Below, piece by piece: positions 5,408 to 12,498 of a stretch of 64,000 bases of DNA (within the stretch, counting starts at the first letter, position 1; every line of letters begins with the position of its first letter). The notes under the pieces are model-generated. The model saw only the letters and a list, made by a program, of their open reading frames with translations. It did not search any database and was not told the DNA's origin. The stretch lies in the sequence record SRR9188677_178; one strand, written 5' to 3'. A program made the translations under genes and the position numbers.

Positions 5408-6680
5408 TCACGCCTCCGATACTTTTTACATCGACATAGAACAACTCCAGATCGGACTCTACATCCATCTGGATTTGGGATGGATGGATCACCCATTCTC
5501 CATCAGCAACTTCAAAGTCACTGAAGAATCCCAGATTGAAACCATTAAATCTTTGGGGCTTACGCAATTGCGTTACGACCCGAGACGCAGTTCCAGCACA
5601 CCTTTAAGGTCTGGCAGCCACAACAATGTGGTTGAATTTCCTTTGAAGAAGGCGTTTTTACCAAGACTGGAAGTGATAGACGACAGCCCTGAATTAAGCA
5701 CTGCACAAAAAAAACAATTGGCACTCAAGCACGCGATTACAGAAAGCGAGCAAAAATTCCTTAAGGCCAGCTCCGATGTATGGAACATACAGAAAATGTC
5801 TGTTGAGCATCCAGACAAAGCTTTTGGCCTGGCATCCAGCGTGGTGCAAGACCTGGTAACCAGCACACTGACTGAGGGTGACGTGGCCATCCATGCCATG
5901 AATGGCCATCGTATTGGTGACCAGCATTACCAGCATGAGCTGAATATCCTGGTGCTTTCAATGCTGTTGGCAAAAAACCTGGATATTTCGGATGATGACG
6001 CCGTTATTCTAGGCATGGCCGCCATTTTGCACGACATTGGCAAAAGGCAGATCAGCGACAAGATTTTATTGAAAAAAGACCCGTTAAGTGTGCGCGAAAC
6101 CGCCATTTACCAAACCCACGTAATGCTGGGCCTGAATATGCTGAAAGAGGTTTCAGTCCCCAGGAAAATACTCTCCATCATAGGCCAGCATCATGAGTTT
6201 GCCGATGGCAGTGGTTACCCGAAAGGCCTGCATTGCGATGATATTGATCCGTTATCGCATATCCTGATTATTACAAATATGTACGATAATCTGTGCAACC
6301 CTTCAAACCCGGCGTTGGCCAAAACCCCATATGAAGCCTTAAGCGTGATGTTTGCCCAGCAGCGCCACCAGTTTGACCAGACTATTCTGCGCCGCTTTAT
6401 CAAGTGCCTTGGCATTTATCCTCCAGGCAGCGTGATCAGACTTTCTGACCAGAAACTGGCGACCGTATTATCGACCAATCCACAACAACCTTTGCGCCCG
6501 TTTATTCAAATGATCACGGATGACAATGACGAAGATGGTGAAATTATCGACTTGCGTGAAGTGTTGGATCTAAATATTATCCAATGCCTTAAACCTGAGC
6601 AGTTACCTACTATCCTGCAAAAAATGATGCGCCAGAAACAGCGCACCAGCTACTTCCTGGACAAAGTCATCAGCGCTTAG
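5400..6680 (+). CDS. HD-GYP phosphodiesterase with DUF3391-like N-terminus
   Basis: LHDIGK and HHEFADGSGYP motifs; N-terminus IDIEQLQIGLYIHLDLGWMDHPF; overlaps the upstream gene by 8 bp. Confidence 0.85.
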   Translation: MPNHASDTFYIDIEQLQIGLYIHLDLGWMDHPFSISNFKVTEESQIETIKSLGLTQLRYDPRRSSSTPLRSGSHNNVVEFPLKKAFLPRLEVIDDSPELSTAQKKQLALKHAITESEQKFLKASSDVWNIQKMSVEHPDKAFGLASSVVQDLVTSTLTEGDVAIHAMNGHRIGDQHYQHELNILVLSMLLAKNLDISDDDAVILGMAAILHDIGKRQISDKILLKKDPLSVRETAIYQTHVMLGLNMLKEVSVPRKILSIIGQHHEFADGSGYPKGLHCDDIDPLSHILIITNMYDNLCNPSNPALAKTPYEALSVMFAQQRHQFDQTILRRFIKCLGIYPPGSVIRLSDQKLATVLSTNPQQPLRPFIQMITDDNDEDGEIIDLREVLDLNIIQCLKPEQLPTILQKMMRQKQRTSYFLDKVISA

Positions 6681-6691
6681 TTAAGGTTGAA

Positions 6692-6719
6692 AATGCCTCC
6701 TGTAAATACAAGAGGCATT
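6692..6719. terminator. Hairpin between convergent genes, probable terminator
   Basis: AATGCCTC...GAGGCATT inverted repeat. Confidence 0.5.
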
Positions 6720-6766
6720 ATTAATCAGGCTGTCCTCTGACCAAGTCAGCCTCTTGGTTACAGCAA

Positions 6767-7240
6767 TCAATGATGCATATGCATATGAGAATCTGAGTCA
6801 GATTCTGGAGGCGCAGTTGCAGTGGCTTTGATTGATACGGTTGCCTTGTTTCCGCCTTCATCCTGCGTCACTAAACTGATAGGCACTGTTTCACCTTCTT
6901 TGATTTGGTGTTTCAATTCCATCAGCATAATATGAAACCCGCCTGGCTTTAATTCCACCAGCTTTCCGGCTTTGAGCTGTAAACGGTCGACTCTTTTCAT
7001 CCTCATGATATTGCCCGTCATCGACATTGAATGCAGCTCAGTTTTACCTGCAACTGGTGAGGATAACGCTACAATCTCAACATTTTTATCAGAGGTTAAT
7101 TGCATATAGGCAGCGCCCACTGGCTGCCCCGTCACAGTCGGTTTTACCCATGCATTCGCTACCTTCAGTTCTGCATGGGCTGCGATGGTGAAACAGGCCA
7201 TGCTGATAACGACCACTATTTTTTTTACATAAGACTTCAT
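6767..7240 (-). CDS. Periplasmic copper chaperone PCu(A)C
   Basis: ELHSM...MRM...LKPGGFHIMLM copper-binding signature, signal peptide and His/Met tail. Start placed at the ATG at 7240, which overlaps the upstream stop (ATGA). Confidence 0.88.
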   Translation of the reverse strand: MKSYVKKIVVVISMACFTIAAHAELKVANAWVKPTVTGQPVGAAYMQLTSDKNVEIVALSSPVAGKTELHSMSMTGNIMRMKRVDRLQLKAGKLVELKPGGFHIMLMELKHQIKEGETVPISLVTQDEGGNKATVSIKATATAPPESDSDSHMHMHH

Positions 7241-8613
7241 TGCTGCTCCTTTGTAATCACAAACTGCCAGAGGGTGTCGAAAATGAGTGCACATAGCATG
7301 GAAACACCAAGCAACGGAAATATAACACCCAGCGCCACGGTAATGATGGCGACATTACGCGTTATTTTTCCATCTTGCCGCTTGGGTGGGGCTGCCACGC
7401 GCTTGCCGGCCGGGCGACGCTTCCACCACATCGTTACCGAGGAAATGGTTAGCAGCAACAAGGCAATACAACCCGCCAGCATGATCAACTGGCTGATCAA
7501 GCCATATTGCTTGCCTTGGTGCACAGAGGTTCCCCATTCAGTCACTTTGGCGACAGGGCCATATTCTGCATAACCGGTATCGATGAGTGTCTTTCCTGAG
7601 TACTGGTCAATATGAATCACCCTCTCCTGCATTGCATCGGCGGGAAACTGCAAGGCGGTATATACGCCGCCAGGCCCCATGGGGAGGCGAATAGAATATC
7701 CCGGTTTCAAGCTGGCGGACTCAAACACATGCAGCGCGGCATCCAATCCGATAGATACAATAGCGCCATTCGATTGGTCATCAATTGAAGTCGGCAAAGT
7801 GGTTTTCTTCAGCGTCCACGGCACATCACCTTGTGACTCGAGTGGTATATTGGATTGCGGAACCGCAGCCCAGAGATAGGTGGGGAAACCCCAGCCATAG
7901 GCAGTGCTGATTTTCCCCAGCTGTTGCCCCCAGAACGCAGACCATGGCATCCCCGTCAATGCAAGGAACAGAATAATGCCACCGCCTATCAAGCCAGTGA
8001 GCGCATGCACATCGCGCCACCACACCCGCTTGTCAGGCGTTTCACGCACACGCACAATGTTTGCACTTTTACCACGCGGCCACCAAAGATACAGGCCGGT
8101 GATGACCAGCACCATCGTCCAGCCCGCCACAACCTCCACCAGCCAGTTTGCCCAAGTACCGACTAAGGTCAGAGAGTGCAGCTTTTTGACGATCAGCTCC
8201 CATTGCTGACTCTCGGCATGTGCACCCAGGATTTGACCGGTAAAAGGATTCACCAGCACCTGCACGGTTTCACCATGTGGCTGTTTGATGAGTATGCCCA
8301 TACTGCGATCAATGGTTGCTGGCGTTTGCACCAGTTTCACTTCGCCGGGATACTCGAGTAACACCTGTTGCGTCAGTCGCTGCAGGGAGATCGCTGGTTG
8401 CGAGGAAGGCGCAACGAAGCGCTCATTGTGATAAATCCAATCATTAATCTCATTTTTAAAAAGATATAGACTTCCGGTGATCACGAGGTTAAGCAAGATT
8501 GGTAAACATAATAATCCGGCAAAAAAATGCCAGCGCCACACACGTGCATAGAGTGCAGAACCGGCTTTTGCTGGGGGGATCACCTTTGTATTGACTGATT
8601 GCATCTGTAGCAC
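7237..8613 (-). CDS. PepSY-associated TM domain membrane protein
   Basis: WRWHFFAGL, KLHSL, ITGLYLWWP, RDVHALTG and VHQG His motifs typical of TonB-linked PepSY-TM proteins. Confidence 0.85.
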   Translation of the reverse strand: MLQMQSVNTKVIPPAKAGSALYARVWRWHFFAGLLCLPILLNLVITGSLYLFKNEINDWIYHNERFVAPSSQPAISLQRLTQQVLLEYPGEVKLVQTPATIDRSMGILIKQPHGETVQVLVNPFTGQILGAHAESQQWELIVKKLHSLTLVGTWANWLVEVVAGWTMVLVITGLYLWWPRGKSANIVRVRETPDKRVWWRDVHALTGLIGGGIILFLALTGMPWSAFWGQQLGKISTAYGWGFPTYLWAAVPQSNIPLESQGDVPWTLKKTTLPTSIDDQSNGAIVSIGLDAALHVFESASLKPGYSIRLPMGPGGVYTALQFPADAMQERVIHIDQYSGKTLIDTGYAEYGPVAKVTEWGTSVHQGKQYGLISQLIMLAGCIALLLLTISSVTMWWKRRPAGKRVAAPPKRQDGKITRNVAIITVALGVIFPLLGVSMLCALIFDTLWQFVITKEQQ

Positions 8614-8657
8614 CGATTGTTATTTATTAAGCCCGGTATTATTTACCGGGCTATTTA

Positions 8658-10724
8658 TTAGTAAGTCCAGGTCACACCAAGGTAAGCCGTGCGGCCATCG
8701 CCAGGAAAAAATTGGGCAGGACTTGTGAAGGCGCGTCTTGCATCGGCGATGACACCAGTCGTCGCAGCATATTTCTGGTCAGCTAGGTTACGTCCCTCCA
8801 CAAACCATGACCAATGCTGATTGATTTTCTGTCCGGCTTTGATTCCCCACAGGAAATAGCTATCTGCATATAGCGTCTCAGCAAAGTCAACATTGTAGCG
8901 TTGTGGTGACCACTCAATGGTTGGGCCGATATAGAAGTTTTCGAGAAAGTCGCTGCCACGGTACAACAGCTCGGCCCGCAACAAAGACCGTTGAATTCCG
9001 GGCAGGCGGTTATTACCAAATGTAGGATCACCATCGAGCTTGAAATCATTGATTAACAGACTGGAACGCCATTGCAGGCTATAAGGAAGTCTCGCCGTCA
9101 GTCCAAACTCCAGGCCACGATGGATGGTTTTCCCGGCATTGATGGTCTGGCTAGCGAAAGGTGAACCTAAGGCCCCCACCTGAAGTAGCTCATCCTGCAA
9201 GCGCGCTTGATAAAGCGCGATATCCCAATCAATAAACTCACTATTACCACGTGAGCCAATTTCAAACGTAGTGCCTTTCTGTGCATTTAAGCTGCTGACG
9301 ACCAGGCTATTTAACTCACCAAAACTTGGCGGCTCAAAACTGCGCGATGCATTGGCAAAAAGTTGTACTTGCGGTTGCAATTGATATAGCACACCCAGTT
9401 TCGGGCTGGTCTGGCTATAAGTTTTATACACGCTCTGGTTACCACTGGCGGTGATCAGCTGATCCTGTGAATCGCGTTTGGATTTGGCATATTGCATACC
9501 GGCAATCACTGTCCATTGTTCGTCCAGGCTTAACCTGTCTTCCAGATAGGCTTCAAAGTTGGACGCTTTCTGGTCAAAATTATTCAGCAACGCACCACGC
9601 TTAGCATTCACATTCACGAAGTTTTTTGCATCGGTACGTCCGCGAGTCGGAGACAGTCCGGCAATGAATTCATTTTTAAGTCCGAACAACTCTCCCATGT
9701 GCGACCATCTTGCCGTCAGGCCCACATCGTTGGATAACTGGTCAATCACGCCGGTAGTATCGCCAAAATTGCCTATCGGGTGATATAAGCTTTTATGCGA
9801 ATAAAAAGCGCCTAGTTCCAGTTTGCTCTGGTCAAACAGAATGGTTGTTTTATTCGCCAGCCTGGTCACGTTAATATCCCGTTGATTAATGCCTTGCCCA
9901 GGAGTCACAGTTGCCTGCCTGGGGTCATCTTTCAATTGCGCTTTGGTCAGGCTACTGGAAAGCTGCGAATCGTTGTTGACGTAACCAAAGTAAAAGCGGG
10001 TTTCAACCTGCTCATTTATTTTGATGCCCACATTACCGGTCAGGCGATCAGCACTTTGCTGCGCATTATCACGGAAGCTATCAGTGTGATATTTACTGGC
10101 AGTGACAAAATAATCTACGTCATCTTTGACACCGCCGGTGCTGATGCCCAGGCGGGCATAGCCATAACTACCGCCTTCAGTGCGTATTTCCAGCGGAGAC
10201 GCCGTGTAGCCGGTGCGGGAAATAAAATTGATGCTGCCGCCCAGATTGCTTGAACCATATTGCAGGGCATTGGCGCCACGATAGACTTCAATATAATCCG
10301 TCGCCATCGGGTCGATGGCAGGAAAGTCAAAGCCGCCGTCAGCCAGGTTAATGGCGATGCCATCTTGCATTAATTTCAAACCACGCCCGTGAAATGTGCG
10401 CTGCAGGCCGGAGCCGCGAATCGATAACCGTGTTTCTTCAGCGCCAAAACGTGACTGTGCGAGCACGCCGGTCGCCATGCCCAGCGTATCCTGCATATTA
10501 CTGGTGCGCCCTTCACGTACGGTCACCATATCCACTAAAGTGGTACCGCCTGCTGTTTTCGCCAGCTCTTTTTTGGCCGCCTCAATGTCCGGCTGCGTCA
10601 GTGGTATTTTCTGTTTTTCTGAAACCACATGCACGGTATCCAGATGTTGTGTTCCCTCATGCTCAGCATGTGCGAGATAAGGTAAAGCTGACAAAATCGC
10701 CAGCCCGATGTTGGTATATTTCAT
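8658..10724 (-). CDS. TonB-dependent outer-membrane receptor, probably for copper or another metal
   Basis: Signal peptide, TonB-box-like DTVHV, plug motifs SIRGSG and IEVYRGANALQYG, aromatic C-terminus (GVTWTY). Start at MKYTN. Substrate inferred from neighbours. Confidence 0.88.
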   Translation of the reverse strand: MKYTNIGLAILSALPYLAHAEHEGTQHLDTVHVVSEKQKIPLTQPDIEAAKKELAKTAGGTTLVDMVTVREGRTSNMQDTLGMATGVLAQSRFGAEETRLSIRGSGLQRTFHGRGLKLMQDGIAINLADGGFDFPAIDPMATDYIEVYRGANALQYGSSNLGGSINFISRTGYTASPLEIRTEGGSYGYARLGISTGGVKDDVDYFVTASKYHTDSFRDNAQQSADRLTGNVGIKINEQVETRFYFGYVNNDSQLSSSLTKAQLKDDPRQATVTPGQGINQRDINVTRLANKTTILFDQSKLELGAFYSHKSLYHPIGNFGDTTGVIDQLSNDVGLTARWSHMGELFGLKNEFIAGLSPTRGRTDAKNFVNVNAKRGALLNNFDQKASNFEAYLEDRLSLDEQWTVIAGMQYAKSKRDSQDQLITASGNQSVYKTYSQTSPKLGVLYQLQPQVQLFANASRSFEPPSFGELNSLVVSSLNAQKGTTFEIGSRGNSEFIDWDIALYQARLQDELLQVGALGSPFASQTINAGKTIHRGLEFGLTARLPYSLQWRSSLLINDFKLDGDPTFGNNRLPGIQRSLLRAELLYRGSDFLENFYIGPTIEWSPQRYNVDFAETLYADSYFLWGIKAGQKINQHWSWFVEGRNLADQKYAATTGVIADARRAFTSPAQFFPGDGRTAYLGVTWTY

Positions 10725-10795
10725 TGCGAATTCTTTCTTTATTTTTAATAGGCATTCACTCTGCTGACTCACTCTTAATCAGCAGAGTGAGTTAT

Positions 10796-11044
10796 TCAAG
10801 CAGCAAATACTTGCCTGGCGGCCGAGTCGGGCTGCCAGCTGATTAATGCCGAAATATCGCAAGTGAAATAGGCACACAGCTTGTCTAGGTGCTCGGTACA
10901 AGCGTTGTAAGCAGGATTTTTGACCATGCGATGCAAGGTCATGCGGCTGATAGCCGTGGATTCGGCGATTTCTTTAAGGGTGATGTGGCGTTTCCACTCC
11001 ACCTGTTTGGCAAAAATCATTGCCTGTAGGTTGATAACGATCAT
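10796..11044 (-). CDS. XRE/Cro-C1-type helix-turn-helix protein
   Basis: ITLKEIAESTAISRMTLHRM HTH followed by LDKLCAYFTCDISAL; GGAG RBS before the ATG at 11044. Confidence 0.8.
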   Translation of the reverse strand: MIVINLQAMIFAKQVEWKRHITLKEIAESTAISRMTLHRMVKNPAYNACTEHLDKLCAYFTCDISALISWQPDSAARQVFAA

Positions 11045-11110
11045 TGAGATGACTCCATCCATGCCTGCGAAGCAGGCATTACTCAGAATCCGGCCACCAT
11101 GTGGACGGGC

Positions 11111-11545
11111 TTAGATTGAGTGTGGAGTCAGTGGCGGTGCGCGTGAGGGATGCGCAGTAGGGTAAAAACTGGAAACAACAGGTGGCTGATATTCGCTAAG
11201 GGCGATCTCAGCCTGAGCTTGCTGAAACAGAATGTAAGCTGGGCTATGCGCAGGCAAGGTTATTTCATCCAGCGCCATATGGCAAAACGGGCAATGATTA
11301 AGATGGTGGCTCAGTGACACTGGCTTTTGCGAAGGCTTAAAGTCTATCAGCGTGGATAATTGCTTGCCTTGCGTGGTAATCACCTGCACCAACAGTTTAC
11401 TGCCTTGGGTAGAACAGATTTGTTGCATAAACGTGCCACCGTTTTGCATGGGGAAAGCCAGGCTCAAAGTCGGGATAAGCGAAGCCAGCATGATTGCCAT
11501 CAATGCCATGCGCGCCATCCATTTTTGAAATTTGACCTTCACCAT
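11111..11545 (-). CDS. DUF2946-family (CruR/CutF-like) protein
   Basis: N-terminal hydrophobic segment, QICSTQG, HCPFC (CxxC) and C-terminal HPSRAPP, located upstream of a TonB receptor. Confidence 0.8.
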   Translation of the reverse strand: MVKVKFQKWMARMALMAIMLASLIPTLSLAFPMQNGGTFMQQICSTQGSKLLVQVITTQGKQLSTLIDFKPSQKPVSLSHHLNHCPFCHMALDEITLPAHSPAYILFQQAQAEIALSEYQPPVVSSFYPTAHPSRAPPLTPHSI

Positions 11546-11607
11546 GGCGTCATTCTAACGGCAATCCTTTAGAATAAACAACTCTTTCATTGTTTCAGGA
11601 TATTTTC

Positions 11608-12498
11608 ATGGCCACCCCAAGCCTGCTTGCCTTATTAGACGACATCACCACCATGCTGGATGACGTTTCCGTCATGAGCCAAGTAGCCGCCAAAAAAACG
11701 GCTGGCGTATTAGGCGATGACTTGGCATTGAATGCACAACAAGTGACCGGAATAGCGGCAAAACGTGAATTGCCGGTGGTGTGGGCGGTAGCGCGCGGGT
11801 CTTTCCTGAATAAACTGGTACTGGTACCTGCAGCCCTGCTGATCAGCGCTTTCATTCCGTGGCTGATTACTCCGTTACTGATGCTGGGTGGTGCATTTTT
11901 ATGTTACGAAGGCTTTGAAAAAATCTGGCATAAATTGCATGAAAAAAAAGGCGACACACACGAAAAAGTGCATGTATCTGTGCAAAACCCTGACACTGAT
12001 CTGGTTGCGCTGGAAAAAGAAAAAATTAAAGGTGCGGTGCGCACTGACTTTATTTTGTCGGCCGAGATTATCGTAATCTCTTTGGGGGTGGTGGCTGAAT
12101 CCGCATTGACCCAGCGCATTGTGGTGCTTTCGATCATTGCCGTCCTGATGACAATTGGTGTTTACGGCCTGGTGGCGTTTATCGTCAAAATGGATGATAT
12201 CGGCTTGTGGTTAATGCAGCGCCAGGGACAAAATGTTACCTCGCAATCGATACGTAAACTTGGCTGGGGCATGGTGCGAATAGTGCCTTACCTGATGCGT
12301 TTGCTGAGTGTGCTGGGAACCGCCGCCATGTTCCTGGTGGGTGGTGGCATTATTGCGCATGGTATCCCTCAATTACACGGTTTGACTGAACTTGCGCTAC
12401 CCTGGTCTTTACTCGTCAATGCAGGCGTTGGCATACTCACTGGCGCATTATGTTTTGTGCTGATTAGTAGCGTGAAGTTATTTATCAATAAAGACTAG
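11608..12498 (+). CDS. DUF808 / YedI-like inner-membrane protein
   Basis: SLLALLDDI...[30 protein letters not shown] and [12 protein letters not shown] motifs. Confidence 0.85.

Follow-up and report, generated by a model that had tools for sequence, protein, structure and literature searches.

A CruR-type leader gene upstream of an XRE-family regulator gene in Methylophilaceae, and an RNA fold through which ribosome arrest may set translation of the regulator

Introduction

What does a copper-responsive arrest peptide control when the gene that follows it encodes a DNA-binding protein? The question is raised by an operon on the minus strand of SRR9188677_178, a DNA stretch of 64,000 nucleotides that is called the window below. 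The operon begins with a DUF2946 gene resembling cruR of Bordetella pertussis, by which name we refer to it, and continues with genes for a small XRE-family helix-turn-helix (HTH) protein, a TonB-dependent receptor, a PepSY_TM membrane protein and a PCuAC copper chaperone. An initial annotation, made from the sequence alone, had described this order and proposed that ribosome stalling on the leader may set the level of the regulator. All five genes are co-oriented on the minus strand where it had placed them, and Pfam agrees with the assignments. The proposal itself gains support from a conserved, covarying RNA fold in which the Shine–Dalgarno sequence (SD) of the XRE gene pairs with the codons that follow the RAPP arrest motif of cruR. 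From comparison of these loci we consider it probable that arrest on cruR opens this fold and thereby sets XRE translation.

Results

The cruR-XRE module and its distribution

The leader and regulator genes of the window are as follows.

11545..11111, minus strand: cruR (DUF2946; Pfam E 1.5e-11, 45.5 bits against a cut-off of 23.7, profile positions 1-117)
11062..10796, minus strand: XRE-family HTH_26 gene as first called (PF13443; Pfam E 1e-10, 42.2 bits against a cut-off of 22)
10796..11044, minus strand: the XRE gene from its likeliest start (ATG 11044, 82 aa, GGAG 8 nt upstream)

The cruR protein has 144 residues, with HCPFC at residues 84-88 (11296..11282), RAPP at 135-138 (11143..11132) and a tail of six residues, LTPHSI, after RAPP. 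It matches DUF2946 (PF11162) above the gathering score and heads an operon of copper-related genes (TonB-dependent transporter, PepSY_TM, PCuAC) into which the XRE gene is interposed. The gap between CxxC (C85-C88) and RAPP (R135-P138) is 46 residues, identical in all 15 RAPP-bearing loci examined among relatives; Bordetella CruR is reported to have 45 residues between the motifs, and the family spacing to be 45 within one or two (PMC9426467). The N-terminus is signal-peptide-like by eye, with a basic n-region, a hydrophobic core and SLA-FP, and an N-terminal export signal is reported in over 95% of the DUF2946 family (PMC9426467). The dN/dS ratio of cruR is 0.10. We infer that cruR encodes a CruR-type copper-sensing arrest peptide in this organism as well.

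The XRE protein matches the HTH family PF13443 above its gathering score. Its translation most likely starts at ATG 11044: the 20 loci from relatives all have an ATG at the position of residue 7, and tblastn matches there begin with query residue 6 or 7 (17 close, Methylophilus-type loci) or with residue 3 or 4 (three diverged loci). A dN/dS of 0.12 over 231 pairs indicates purifying selection and hence a functional protein, not a spacer.

The nearest genome compared has 61% of sampled words in common with the window, and an identical XRE locus is found in Methylophilus sp. Leaf416. The XRE protein occurs in 21 of 41 genomes, namely in 20 of 25 from the same genus and in 1 of 16 from other families of the order, where the single match has 38% identity and an unrelated context. 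A DUF2946 gene lies directly upstream of XRE in 19 of the 20 loci from relatives, with an intergenic distance of 63-67 nt in 17 loci and 89-93 nt in two. A collection-wide scan, taking one genome per species, gave 68 XRE loci, which belong by title to Methylophilaceae, Methylophilus or Methylotenera save for four records: two contigs of one metagenome-assembled genome (MAG) titled Acidovorax caeni (84% and 57% identity), a "Pseudomonadota bacterium" and a "beta proteobacterium". A match in a Gimesia MAG, 20 residues long with E 4e-4, was set aside. In 42 of the 68 loci a DUF2946 leader with HC[PA]xC and [RQ][AG]PP lies immediately upstream. A DUF2946 leader with an intervening HTH gene, which the initial annotation had known from this one locus, is thus recurrent, and the thought that the XRE gene might be missing from relatives can be laid aside. 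Judged by this comparison of sequences, the cruR-XRE arrangement is not a product of chance.

The leaders of the 42 loci differ in what follows the prolines, given here as the motif plus the number of residues after it.

RAPP tails: 24 RAPP+6 (two of them the second copy in a genome), 1 RAPP+7, 2 RAPP+5, 2 RAPP+3, 4 RAPP+2
Other tails: 2 RGPP+6; 7 QAPP+2 in unique rows plus further QAPP+2 rows, 12 QAPP in total

On its other side cruR is adjoined, in divergent orientation, by a DUF808 gene in 36 of the 42 loci, the most distant groups included, which suggests a functional or regulatory tie between the two. The genes after XRE vary. A receptor at least 50% identical to that of the window comes next in 15 of 42 loci, and elsewhere XRE is followed by inserted genes for two PEP-CTERM proteins and a second receptor, so that the constant unit is cruR plus XRE. 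A second cruR-XRE pair is present in L022 (the same as L055) and in L054, with a 75-aa XRE protein 68% identical to the first, and heads two PEP-CTERM genes and a receptor gene; as this pair adjoins serine-recombinase-like and ParB-like genes, the module may move. One locus, L068, has cruR-XRE together with a second DUF2946 gene about 2.5 kb downstream, directly before a receptor gene.

A predicted RNA fold pairs the XRE Shine–Dalgarno sequence with post-RAPP codons

Between the RAPP codons and the XRE start the window contains the following elements.

11123..11130, minus strand: anti-SD UGACUCCA, within cruR codons 139-141 (from the minimum free energy fold, RNAalifold and low third-position entropy)
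11081..11121, minus strand: helix P2, in which the last cruR codons and the stop codon pair with the intergenic region; it encloses hairpin 1
11110..11093, minus strand: hairpin 1, inside P2, with changes on both sides in 5/5 pairs
11061..11079, minus strand: hairpin 2, an 8-bp stem with a 3-nt loop directly 5′ of the XRE SD, with changes on both sides in 5/6 pairs
11050..11057, minus strand: XRE SD region UGGAGUCA, which pairs with the anti-SD as the outer stem P1

From the Arg codon of RAPP to XRE codon 4, the minimum free energy (MFE) fold is a three-way junction of -36.1 kcal/mol, closed by P1, in which UGACUCCA (11130..11123) pairs with UGGAGUCA (11057..11050). Counted from the first base of the Pro codon that an arrested ribosome would have in its P site, the anti-SD spans +8 to +15. 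Since a bacterial ribosome covers mRNA to roughly 15 nt 3′ of that base, arrest would keep the anti-SD inside the ribosome and leave the XRE SD free. As in SD-unmasking switches, the SD is predicted to be held in a stem, the other arm of which an arrested ribosome would reach. An Rfam search of 6500..12000 gave no credible family, the single match scoring 14.8 bits against a gathering score of 284.7.

RNAalifold on 17 sequences recovered the same three helices, with changes on both sides in 8 of 18 pairs. A covariance model made from this alignment gave 31 matches in 43 sources at E up to 1, of which 30 distinct rows were used. Paired cells amounted to 95.4% in these rows, as against 29-43% with slid partners; compensatory changes were seen in 14 of the 18 pairs, and none of 500 shuffles attained any of five structure measures. 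Because the covariance model missed most of the distant groups, all 42 loci were also folded singly. In 35 of the 42 folds at least three of the four SD bases find their partners within the 30 nt that follow the xAPP codons, and in three further loci the partners are the Pro codons themselves. Shuffles of the arms alone gave mixed results and were replaced by pairing probabilities from the whole fold, by which the mean SD pairing probability over the 42 loci is 0.83, compared with 0.22 when the 5′ stretch is shuffled.

The pairing is kept while the sequences of the arms are wholly different between groups (UGACUCCA/UGGAGUCA, UCACUCU/GGAGUGA, GUACUUUAAUUAAAUUU/AAAUUUAAUUGGAGUAC and CUCUGAUUUAAACC/GGUUUGAAUUGGAG), and cognate arms form duplexes of -14.3 kcal/mol on average, as against -9.0 for 1170 cross-group pairs. 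Measured from the first base of the Arg or Gln codon, the 5′-most partner of the SD is at 16-18 nt throughout, in groups with 2- to 7-codon tails alike. In 22 orthologues the third positions of the Ala, Pro and Pro codons of RAPP have entropies of 1.48, 1.67 and 1.85 bits, and those of the six tail codons 0.27, 0.44, 0.70, 0.0, 0.27 and 0.27 bits. So little variation in the tail, where the four- or six-fold degeneracy of Leu, Thr, Pro and Ser would permit far more, points to selection at the level of the RNA.

Relatives without the XRE gene carry the fold on the receptor gene

Each of the five same-genus genomes without XRE has a cruR homologue. DUF808 adjoins it in L139 to L142, which represent four of these genomes, and in L144, a second locus of G015. 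At L139 to L142 a RAPP+2 leader is followed after 54-65 nt by a TonB receptor gene, and all four, when folded, show the stretch behind RAPP paired with the receptor gene's SD, for example GUUACUCUAAA/UUUGGAGUAAC. The same device thus acts on the receptor gene where XRE is lacking and on XRE where it is present, suggesting that XRE was interposed or lost as a unit and that, where present, it has displaced the receptor gene as the one directly gated. On this comparison the XRE-less switch fits a move from control of a transporter in cis to control of a regulator.

Other leaders of this type were noted in the same genomes and beyond. In L104 (G001:C2) and L103 (G012) a CxxC/RAPP leader of 106-122 aa, with the tail ARAPPSFSQL or ARAPPFSISA, lies about 100 nt before another TonB receptor gene, and in L104 the codons after RAPP are, by eye, complementary to the ribosome-binding region of that gene. 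Across the order, DUF2946 was matched in 71 of 301 sampled genomes, and the 30 best-scoring loci were taken for a scan of 77 same-strand open reading frames of at least 55 aa that start at most 600 nt downstream. No HTH_26 gene was found downstream of DUF2946 in these 30 best-scoring loci of the 71; a receptor comes next in 13 of the 30, and others have PCuAC, SCO1, CopC, PepSY_TM, TonB or MbnP. Two loci of another family of the order, L119 and L137, have leaders ending SRAPPQLS and SRAPPIRS; at distances of 284 and 179 nt there follows a gene for a protein of about 235 aa that has a cNMP-binding domain. The product is possibly a Crp/Fnr-type regulator, and these loci may show another arrangement of leader before regulator.

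The cruR promoter

Upstream of cruR we note two further elements.

11552..11581, minus strand: putative cruR promoter, with -35 TTGTTT (11581..11576), an 18-nt spacer and -10 TAGAAT (11557..11552)
11575..11552: inverted repeat ATTCTAA-N10-TTAGAAT, between the -35 and -10 of the cruR promoter and shared with the divergent DUF808 gene

The -10 hexamer TAGAAT ends exactly 6 nt before the cruR ATG. A TAnnnT hexamer ends at this distance in 39 of the 42 loci, the three misses being due to a wrong guess of the start, and no SD-like motif was seen upstream of the cruR ATG in any of the 42. The short distance and the missing SD suggest that the cruR mRNA is leaderless. In 13 of 30 DUF2946 genes sampled across the order, a -10-like hexamer lies 6 or 7 nt before the start, and sequence comparison thus suggests that many cruR mRNAs are leaderless. 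The one paper found in which "leaderless" occurs with CruR uses the word in a general sense only.

The inverted repeat occurs once in the window. Its variants, such as ATTTTA...TAAAAT, differ on both sides; four genomes have 1-3 sites each, compared with 0-1 for a control pattern; and it is missing from the XRE-less paralogue L105, the sole such paralogue examined. We considered the repeat as an operator for XRE and do not claim it as one, since it is also found at XRE-less orthologous loci; by its distribution it is probably not an XRE-specific operator. No XRE operator was found among the candidates considered, which were this repeat and a motif shared with a paralogous locus.

The XRE protein

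With a profile of 15 family members, the best match of the XRE protein in the Protein Data Bank (PDB) was CylR2 (E 1.3e-5, residues 13-73), and SinR and other XRE proteins were matched as well. CylR2 of Enterococcus faecalis (PDB 2xiu, 1utx), the best solved relative, is likewise a small single-domain HTH protein. CylR2 binds a palindrome as a dimer. The match is remote and the context unrelated (a cytolysin repressor by PDB title), and the Cys49 of the Methylophilus type, placed by prediction on the axis of the dimer, is a further difference from CylR2. A homodimer is predicted by structure modeling, with ipSAE 0.60, compared with 0.00 for the best of three controls, pLDDT 86 and contacts at least 93% reproducible between runs. 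An ipSAE of 0.60 is attained by 21 of 30 solved proteins that form same-chain pairs and by none of 23 solved as single chains; the score may derive from likeness to XRE dimers already solved.

The initial annotation had drawn attention to three cysteines in this protein, and here the argument is weak. C57 and C62 are invariant in 66 of 66 family members, 24 of them not cruR-linked, and are thus typical of the family, while the third, C49 (window about 10898-10900), is confined to a clade: 27 of the 42 cruR-linked XRE proteins have it, and none of the 24 others does. The idea of a three-Cys metal site was therefore dropped. In the dimer model C49 contacts its mate across the two-fold axis near His52, and it could be a metal or redox site or a plain clade marker.

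A paralogous XRE protein of about 50% identity, with the same recognition helix SRMTLHR, is encoded in L021, L023, L025, L026 and 18 loci among L057-L081. Its gene sits behind a BrkB-family gene and is followed by a giant gene, whose product of about 1900 aa has TPR and GT41 domains. This locus has a conserved palindromic promoter, ATTATA-N8-TATAAT, and a further palindrome ahead of the giant gene. No clear motif common to the cruR-XRE and paralogous XRE loci was seen.

The remainder of the operon and the link to copper

The other features of the operon and its flanks are as follows.

10772..8658, minus strand: TonB receptor as first called (Pfam Plug E 1.7e-13 and barrel E 1.5e-43)
8658..10724, minus strand: TonB receptor from its probable start, YncD/PqqU-like
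8613..7237, minus strand: PepSY_TM membrane protein (Pfam E 1.5e-61)
7294..6767, minus strand: PCuAC as first called (Pfam E 9.9e-34)
6767..7240, minus strand: PCuAC copper chaperone from its probable start, the ATG overlapping the PepSY_TM stop (ATGA)
6688..6719, minus strand: terminator-like hairpin followed by UUUU (from the fold), at the operon end and facing a convergent HD-domain gene
10756..10790, minus strand: 14-bp hairpin directly after the XRE stop, without a U-run (from the fold)
8630-8652: 9-bp GC-rich hairpin between the receptor stop and the PepSY_TM start (from the fold), followed by A/T-rich sequence with no clear U-run
11608-12498: DUF808 membrane-protein gene, divergent from cruR, the start codons about 62 nt apart

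From cruR to PCuAC the genes are spaced by 66, 71 and 44 nt and then by the ATGA overlap. In most Methylophilus-type loci the XRE stop is likewise followed by a GC-rich hairpin, of a sequence that differs between loci; distant groups are without one, and there the next gene lies within about 30 nt. The hairpin might be a stabilizer of a 3′-end or a processing site. Four public sequencing runs gave short fragments, among them a 258-nt RNA contig within cruR and a bridge from XRE to the receptor gene, the latter from a run of doubtful kind, and are uninformative on co-transcription, starts or levels.

The best PDB matches of the receptor are YncD and PqqU, both at E 1.9e-38, and its best NCBIfam match is PqqU at 182 bits, far below the cut-off of 1200. 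It has no match to TIGR01778 at E <=1e-3, and no CrtA chain is among its PDB matches at E <=1e-10, the presence of CrtA in the PDB set being unconfirmed. PCuAC and PepSY_TM are reported as the usual partners in cruR operons (PMC9426467; PMC12914433).

Discussion

A proposed switch at the XRE ribosome-binding site

We propose the following mechanism. In free mRNA, the eight bases 3′ of the RAPP codons would pair with the XRE SD. A ribosome arrested on cruR with Pro137 in the P site and Pro138 in the A site would hold the anti-SD in its mRNA channel, leaving the XRE ribosome-binding site free, so that XRE would be translated. Once arrest is relieved, the ribosome would terminate, the three-way junction would re-form and XRE translation would drop. 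The position of the arrested ribosome follows that reported from toeprints of B. pertussis CruR, with the two Pro codons in the P and A sites (PMC12992588), and from cryo-electron microscopy of ApdA/ApdP, where arrest likewise places two Pro codons in these sites (PMC10951233). Both the precedent of Bordetella CruR and the logic of an uptake operon make it probable that copper relieves the arrest, in which case XRE would be made under copper limitation. Co-translational sensing of copper would in this way be turned into the level of a transcription factor.

Three other explanations have to be set against this mechanism. The published mode of action of CruR is that a stalled ribosome blocks Rho (PMC9426467), and the leader described here has the family, motifs and spacing of Bordetella CruR; copper could thus act through Rho-dependent termination between cruR and XRE, with the junction serving for stability or pausing. 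However, the intergenic region of the 17 close loci, at 63-67 nt, is short beside the 162 bp of B. pertussis and is taken up by two covarying hairpins, and the conserved pairing partner is the XRE SD itself. We regard Rho as quite unlikely to be the sole means of control, while it could operate alongside the SD switch. Plain translational coupling, in which any passing or terminating ribosome opens the fold and neither RAPP arrest nor copper matters to XRE, is a competitor we also think unlikely, though we give it some room: judged from the size of its footprint, a ribosome terminating on cruR would cover the anti-SD with its trailing edge, and in groups with 2-codon tails the stop codon lies within the 5′ arm. 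Against coupling, the spacing between the anti-SD and the xAPP codons is constant and that between the anti-SD and the stop codon is not (2 to 7 codons), and RAPP or RGPP together with the CxxC spacing is strictly kept in 30 of 42 leaders. Last, XRE could be an independent regulator with its own promoter that merely stands beside cruR, the fold being a by-product of sequence conservation. The initial annotation had allowed for such a promoter, and on this point its proposal is borne out in part: no promoter-like or terminator-like site was found on the operon strand from cruR to the receptor in our scan, but the scan is crude and missed the cruR promoter too, so that its weight is small. Paralogous XRE genes also stand alone elsewhere in the same genomes. 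Yet the gene order is fixed over 42 loci in divergent groups, the structure is kept by compensatory changes, synonymous sites in the cruR tail are frozen, and the fold recurs on the receptor gene of relatives without XRE, all of which together makes an independent XRE gene very improbable.

Several observations weigh against the stall-opened switch or against parts of it. The window fold is but modestly better than shuffled sequences, 7 of 200 of which fold equally well (z -1.87). The 30-row alignment was fitted to a covariance model, which favors structure; P1 is near-invariant in close orthologues, with the compensatory changes coming from 1-3 sequences per pair; and the distant groups are represented by single folds and no alignment. 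For the arms alone, 20 of 42 loci beat all but at most five of 200 shuffles, and L043 fell below most shuffles. In four of the 42 MFE folds (L040, L055, L084 and, with 2/4 bases, L092) the SD is unpaired or half paired with the arrest region. Twelve of the 42 leaders have QAPP, whereas Arg is reported from the R139A variant of CruR to be required for arrest (PMC12992588). The promoter repeat, which might have served XRE as an operator, is shared by XRE-less loci. As to copper, the receptor is not detectably a member of the known copper-transporter families (OprC, CrtA) by sequence. CruR and CutF are reported to act in opposite copper senses (PMC9973294; bioRxiv 10.1101/2025.02.05.636593); we assign the CruR-type sense because of the CxxC spacing and the uptake-type genes, and this is the weakest step. 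The stall-opened SD switch nevertheless remains the reading we think probable.

A further idea goes beyond translation of XRE. A copper sensor may have been rewired from cis to trans, the time that ribosomes spend arrested on a leaderless cruR mRNA being read as the concentration of a dimeric repressor that would govern genes elsewhere. We put this forward tentatively and hold it to be rather doubtful. Should XRE be such a repressor, the clade-specific Cys49 pair of the dimer model could add a direct copper or redox input.

Relation to known arrest-peptide systems

The nearest system is that of B. pertussis CruR (Bp2923), encoded in the operon cruR-crtA(bfrG)-crpH (PMC9426467; PMC12914433; PMC12992588). 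The two leaders agree in being DUF2946 proteins with a CxxC, a C-proximal RAPP and the family spacing, and each leader gene heads an operon that also encodes a TonB receptor and PepSY_TM, and here PCuAC as well. In Bordetella the next gene is the receptor gene and the intergenic region is 162 bp, whereas here the next gene is XRE and the intergenic region is 66 nt and folded. We propose unmasking of an SD where Rho-dependent termination is the published mechanism; six residues follow RAPP instead of three; the receptor is YncD/PqqU-like and not detectably CrtA-like; and the promoter suggests a leaderless mRNA, whereas the transcription start of B. pertussis cruR is reported 45 bp upstream.

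The logic of SD exposure is that of cutF-cutO, for which its authors cite SecM, MifM and VemP as alike (PMC9973294). CutF of Rhodobacter capsulatus (cutFOG) is a DUF2946-like exported leader on which stalling melts a stem that shields a ribosome-binding site (PMC9973294; bioRxiv 10.1101/2025.02.05.636593). It differs in having a CxxxC and a proline-rich motif, in copper-induced stalling and in a multicopper oxidase as target, whereas the leader described here has RAPP, uptake-type genes and a DNA-binding protein as target. A stalled ribosome likewise exposes a downstream SD in SecM-secA, MifM-yidC2, VemP-secDF2 and ApdA/ApdP (PMC9973294; PMC10951233), the last of which have the RAPP arrest module in common with cruR (PMC10951233). 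Those peptides monitor export and control the export machinery; cruR combines a metal-binding CxxC with a regulator as target. The nearest precedent for an arrest peptide before a regulator gene is that of Streptomyces lividans SLIV_33595 and SLIV_33605, whose RAPP/RGPP arrest peptides precede genes for ECF sigma factors (PMC12992588). They are four-transmembrane proteins of a different phylum and not DUF2946, and the available part of that paper describes no RNA switch or regulatory link for them.

The initial annotation had held the arrangement of DUF2946 and HTH genes to be undescribed, and we too found none in the literature, although the figures that list neighbors and Table S3 of the CruR and CutF papers may include such cases. 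The terms HTH, XRE and helix-turn-helix are absent from three supplements of PMC9426467 and two of PMC9973294; HTH is absent from the available main text of PMC9973294, HTH and helix-turn-helix from the available part of PMC12992588, and helix-turn-helix from that of the 2025 preprint (bioRxiv 10.1101/2025.02.05.636593). While switches worked by arrest peptides are known, a DNA-binding regulator as the gated gene, on a family-wide scale, appears to be undescribed.

Implications

Arrest peptides usually gate a transporter, an export factor or an enzyme, and the comparative data presented here point to a DNA-binding regulator. They also suggest that SD unmasking, as published for CutF, operates in CruR-type RAPP leaders too, for which Rho-dependent control is the only mechanism in print in the available sources. 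Loci in which cruR leads to a receptor gene and those in which it leads to XRE, at the same locus in the same genus, form a natural pair for the study of circuit evolution. If the switch is as we propose, a co-translational metal sensor could command distant genes.

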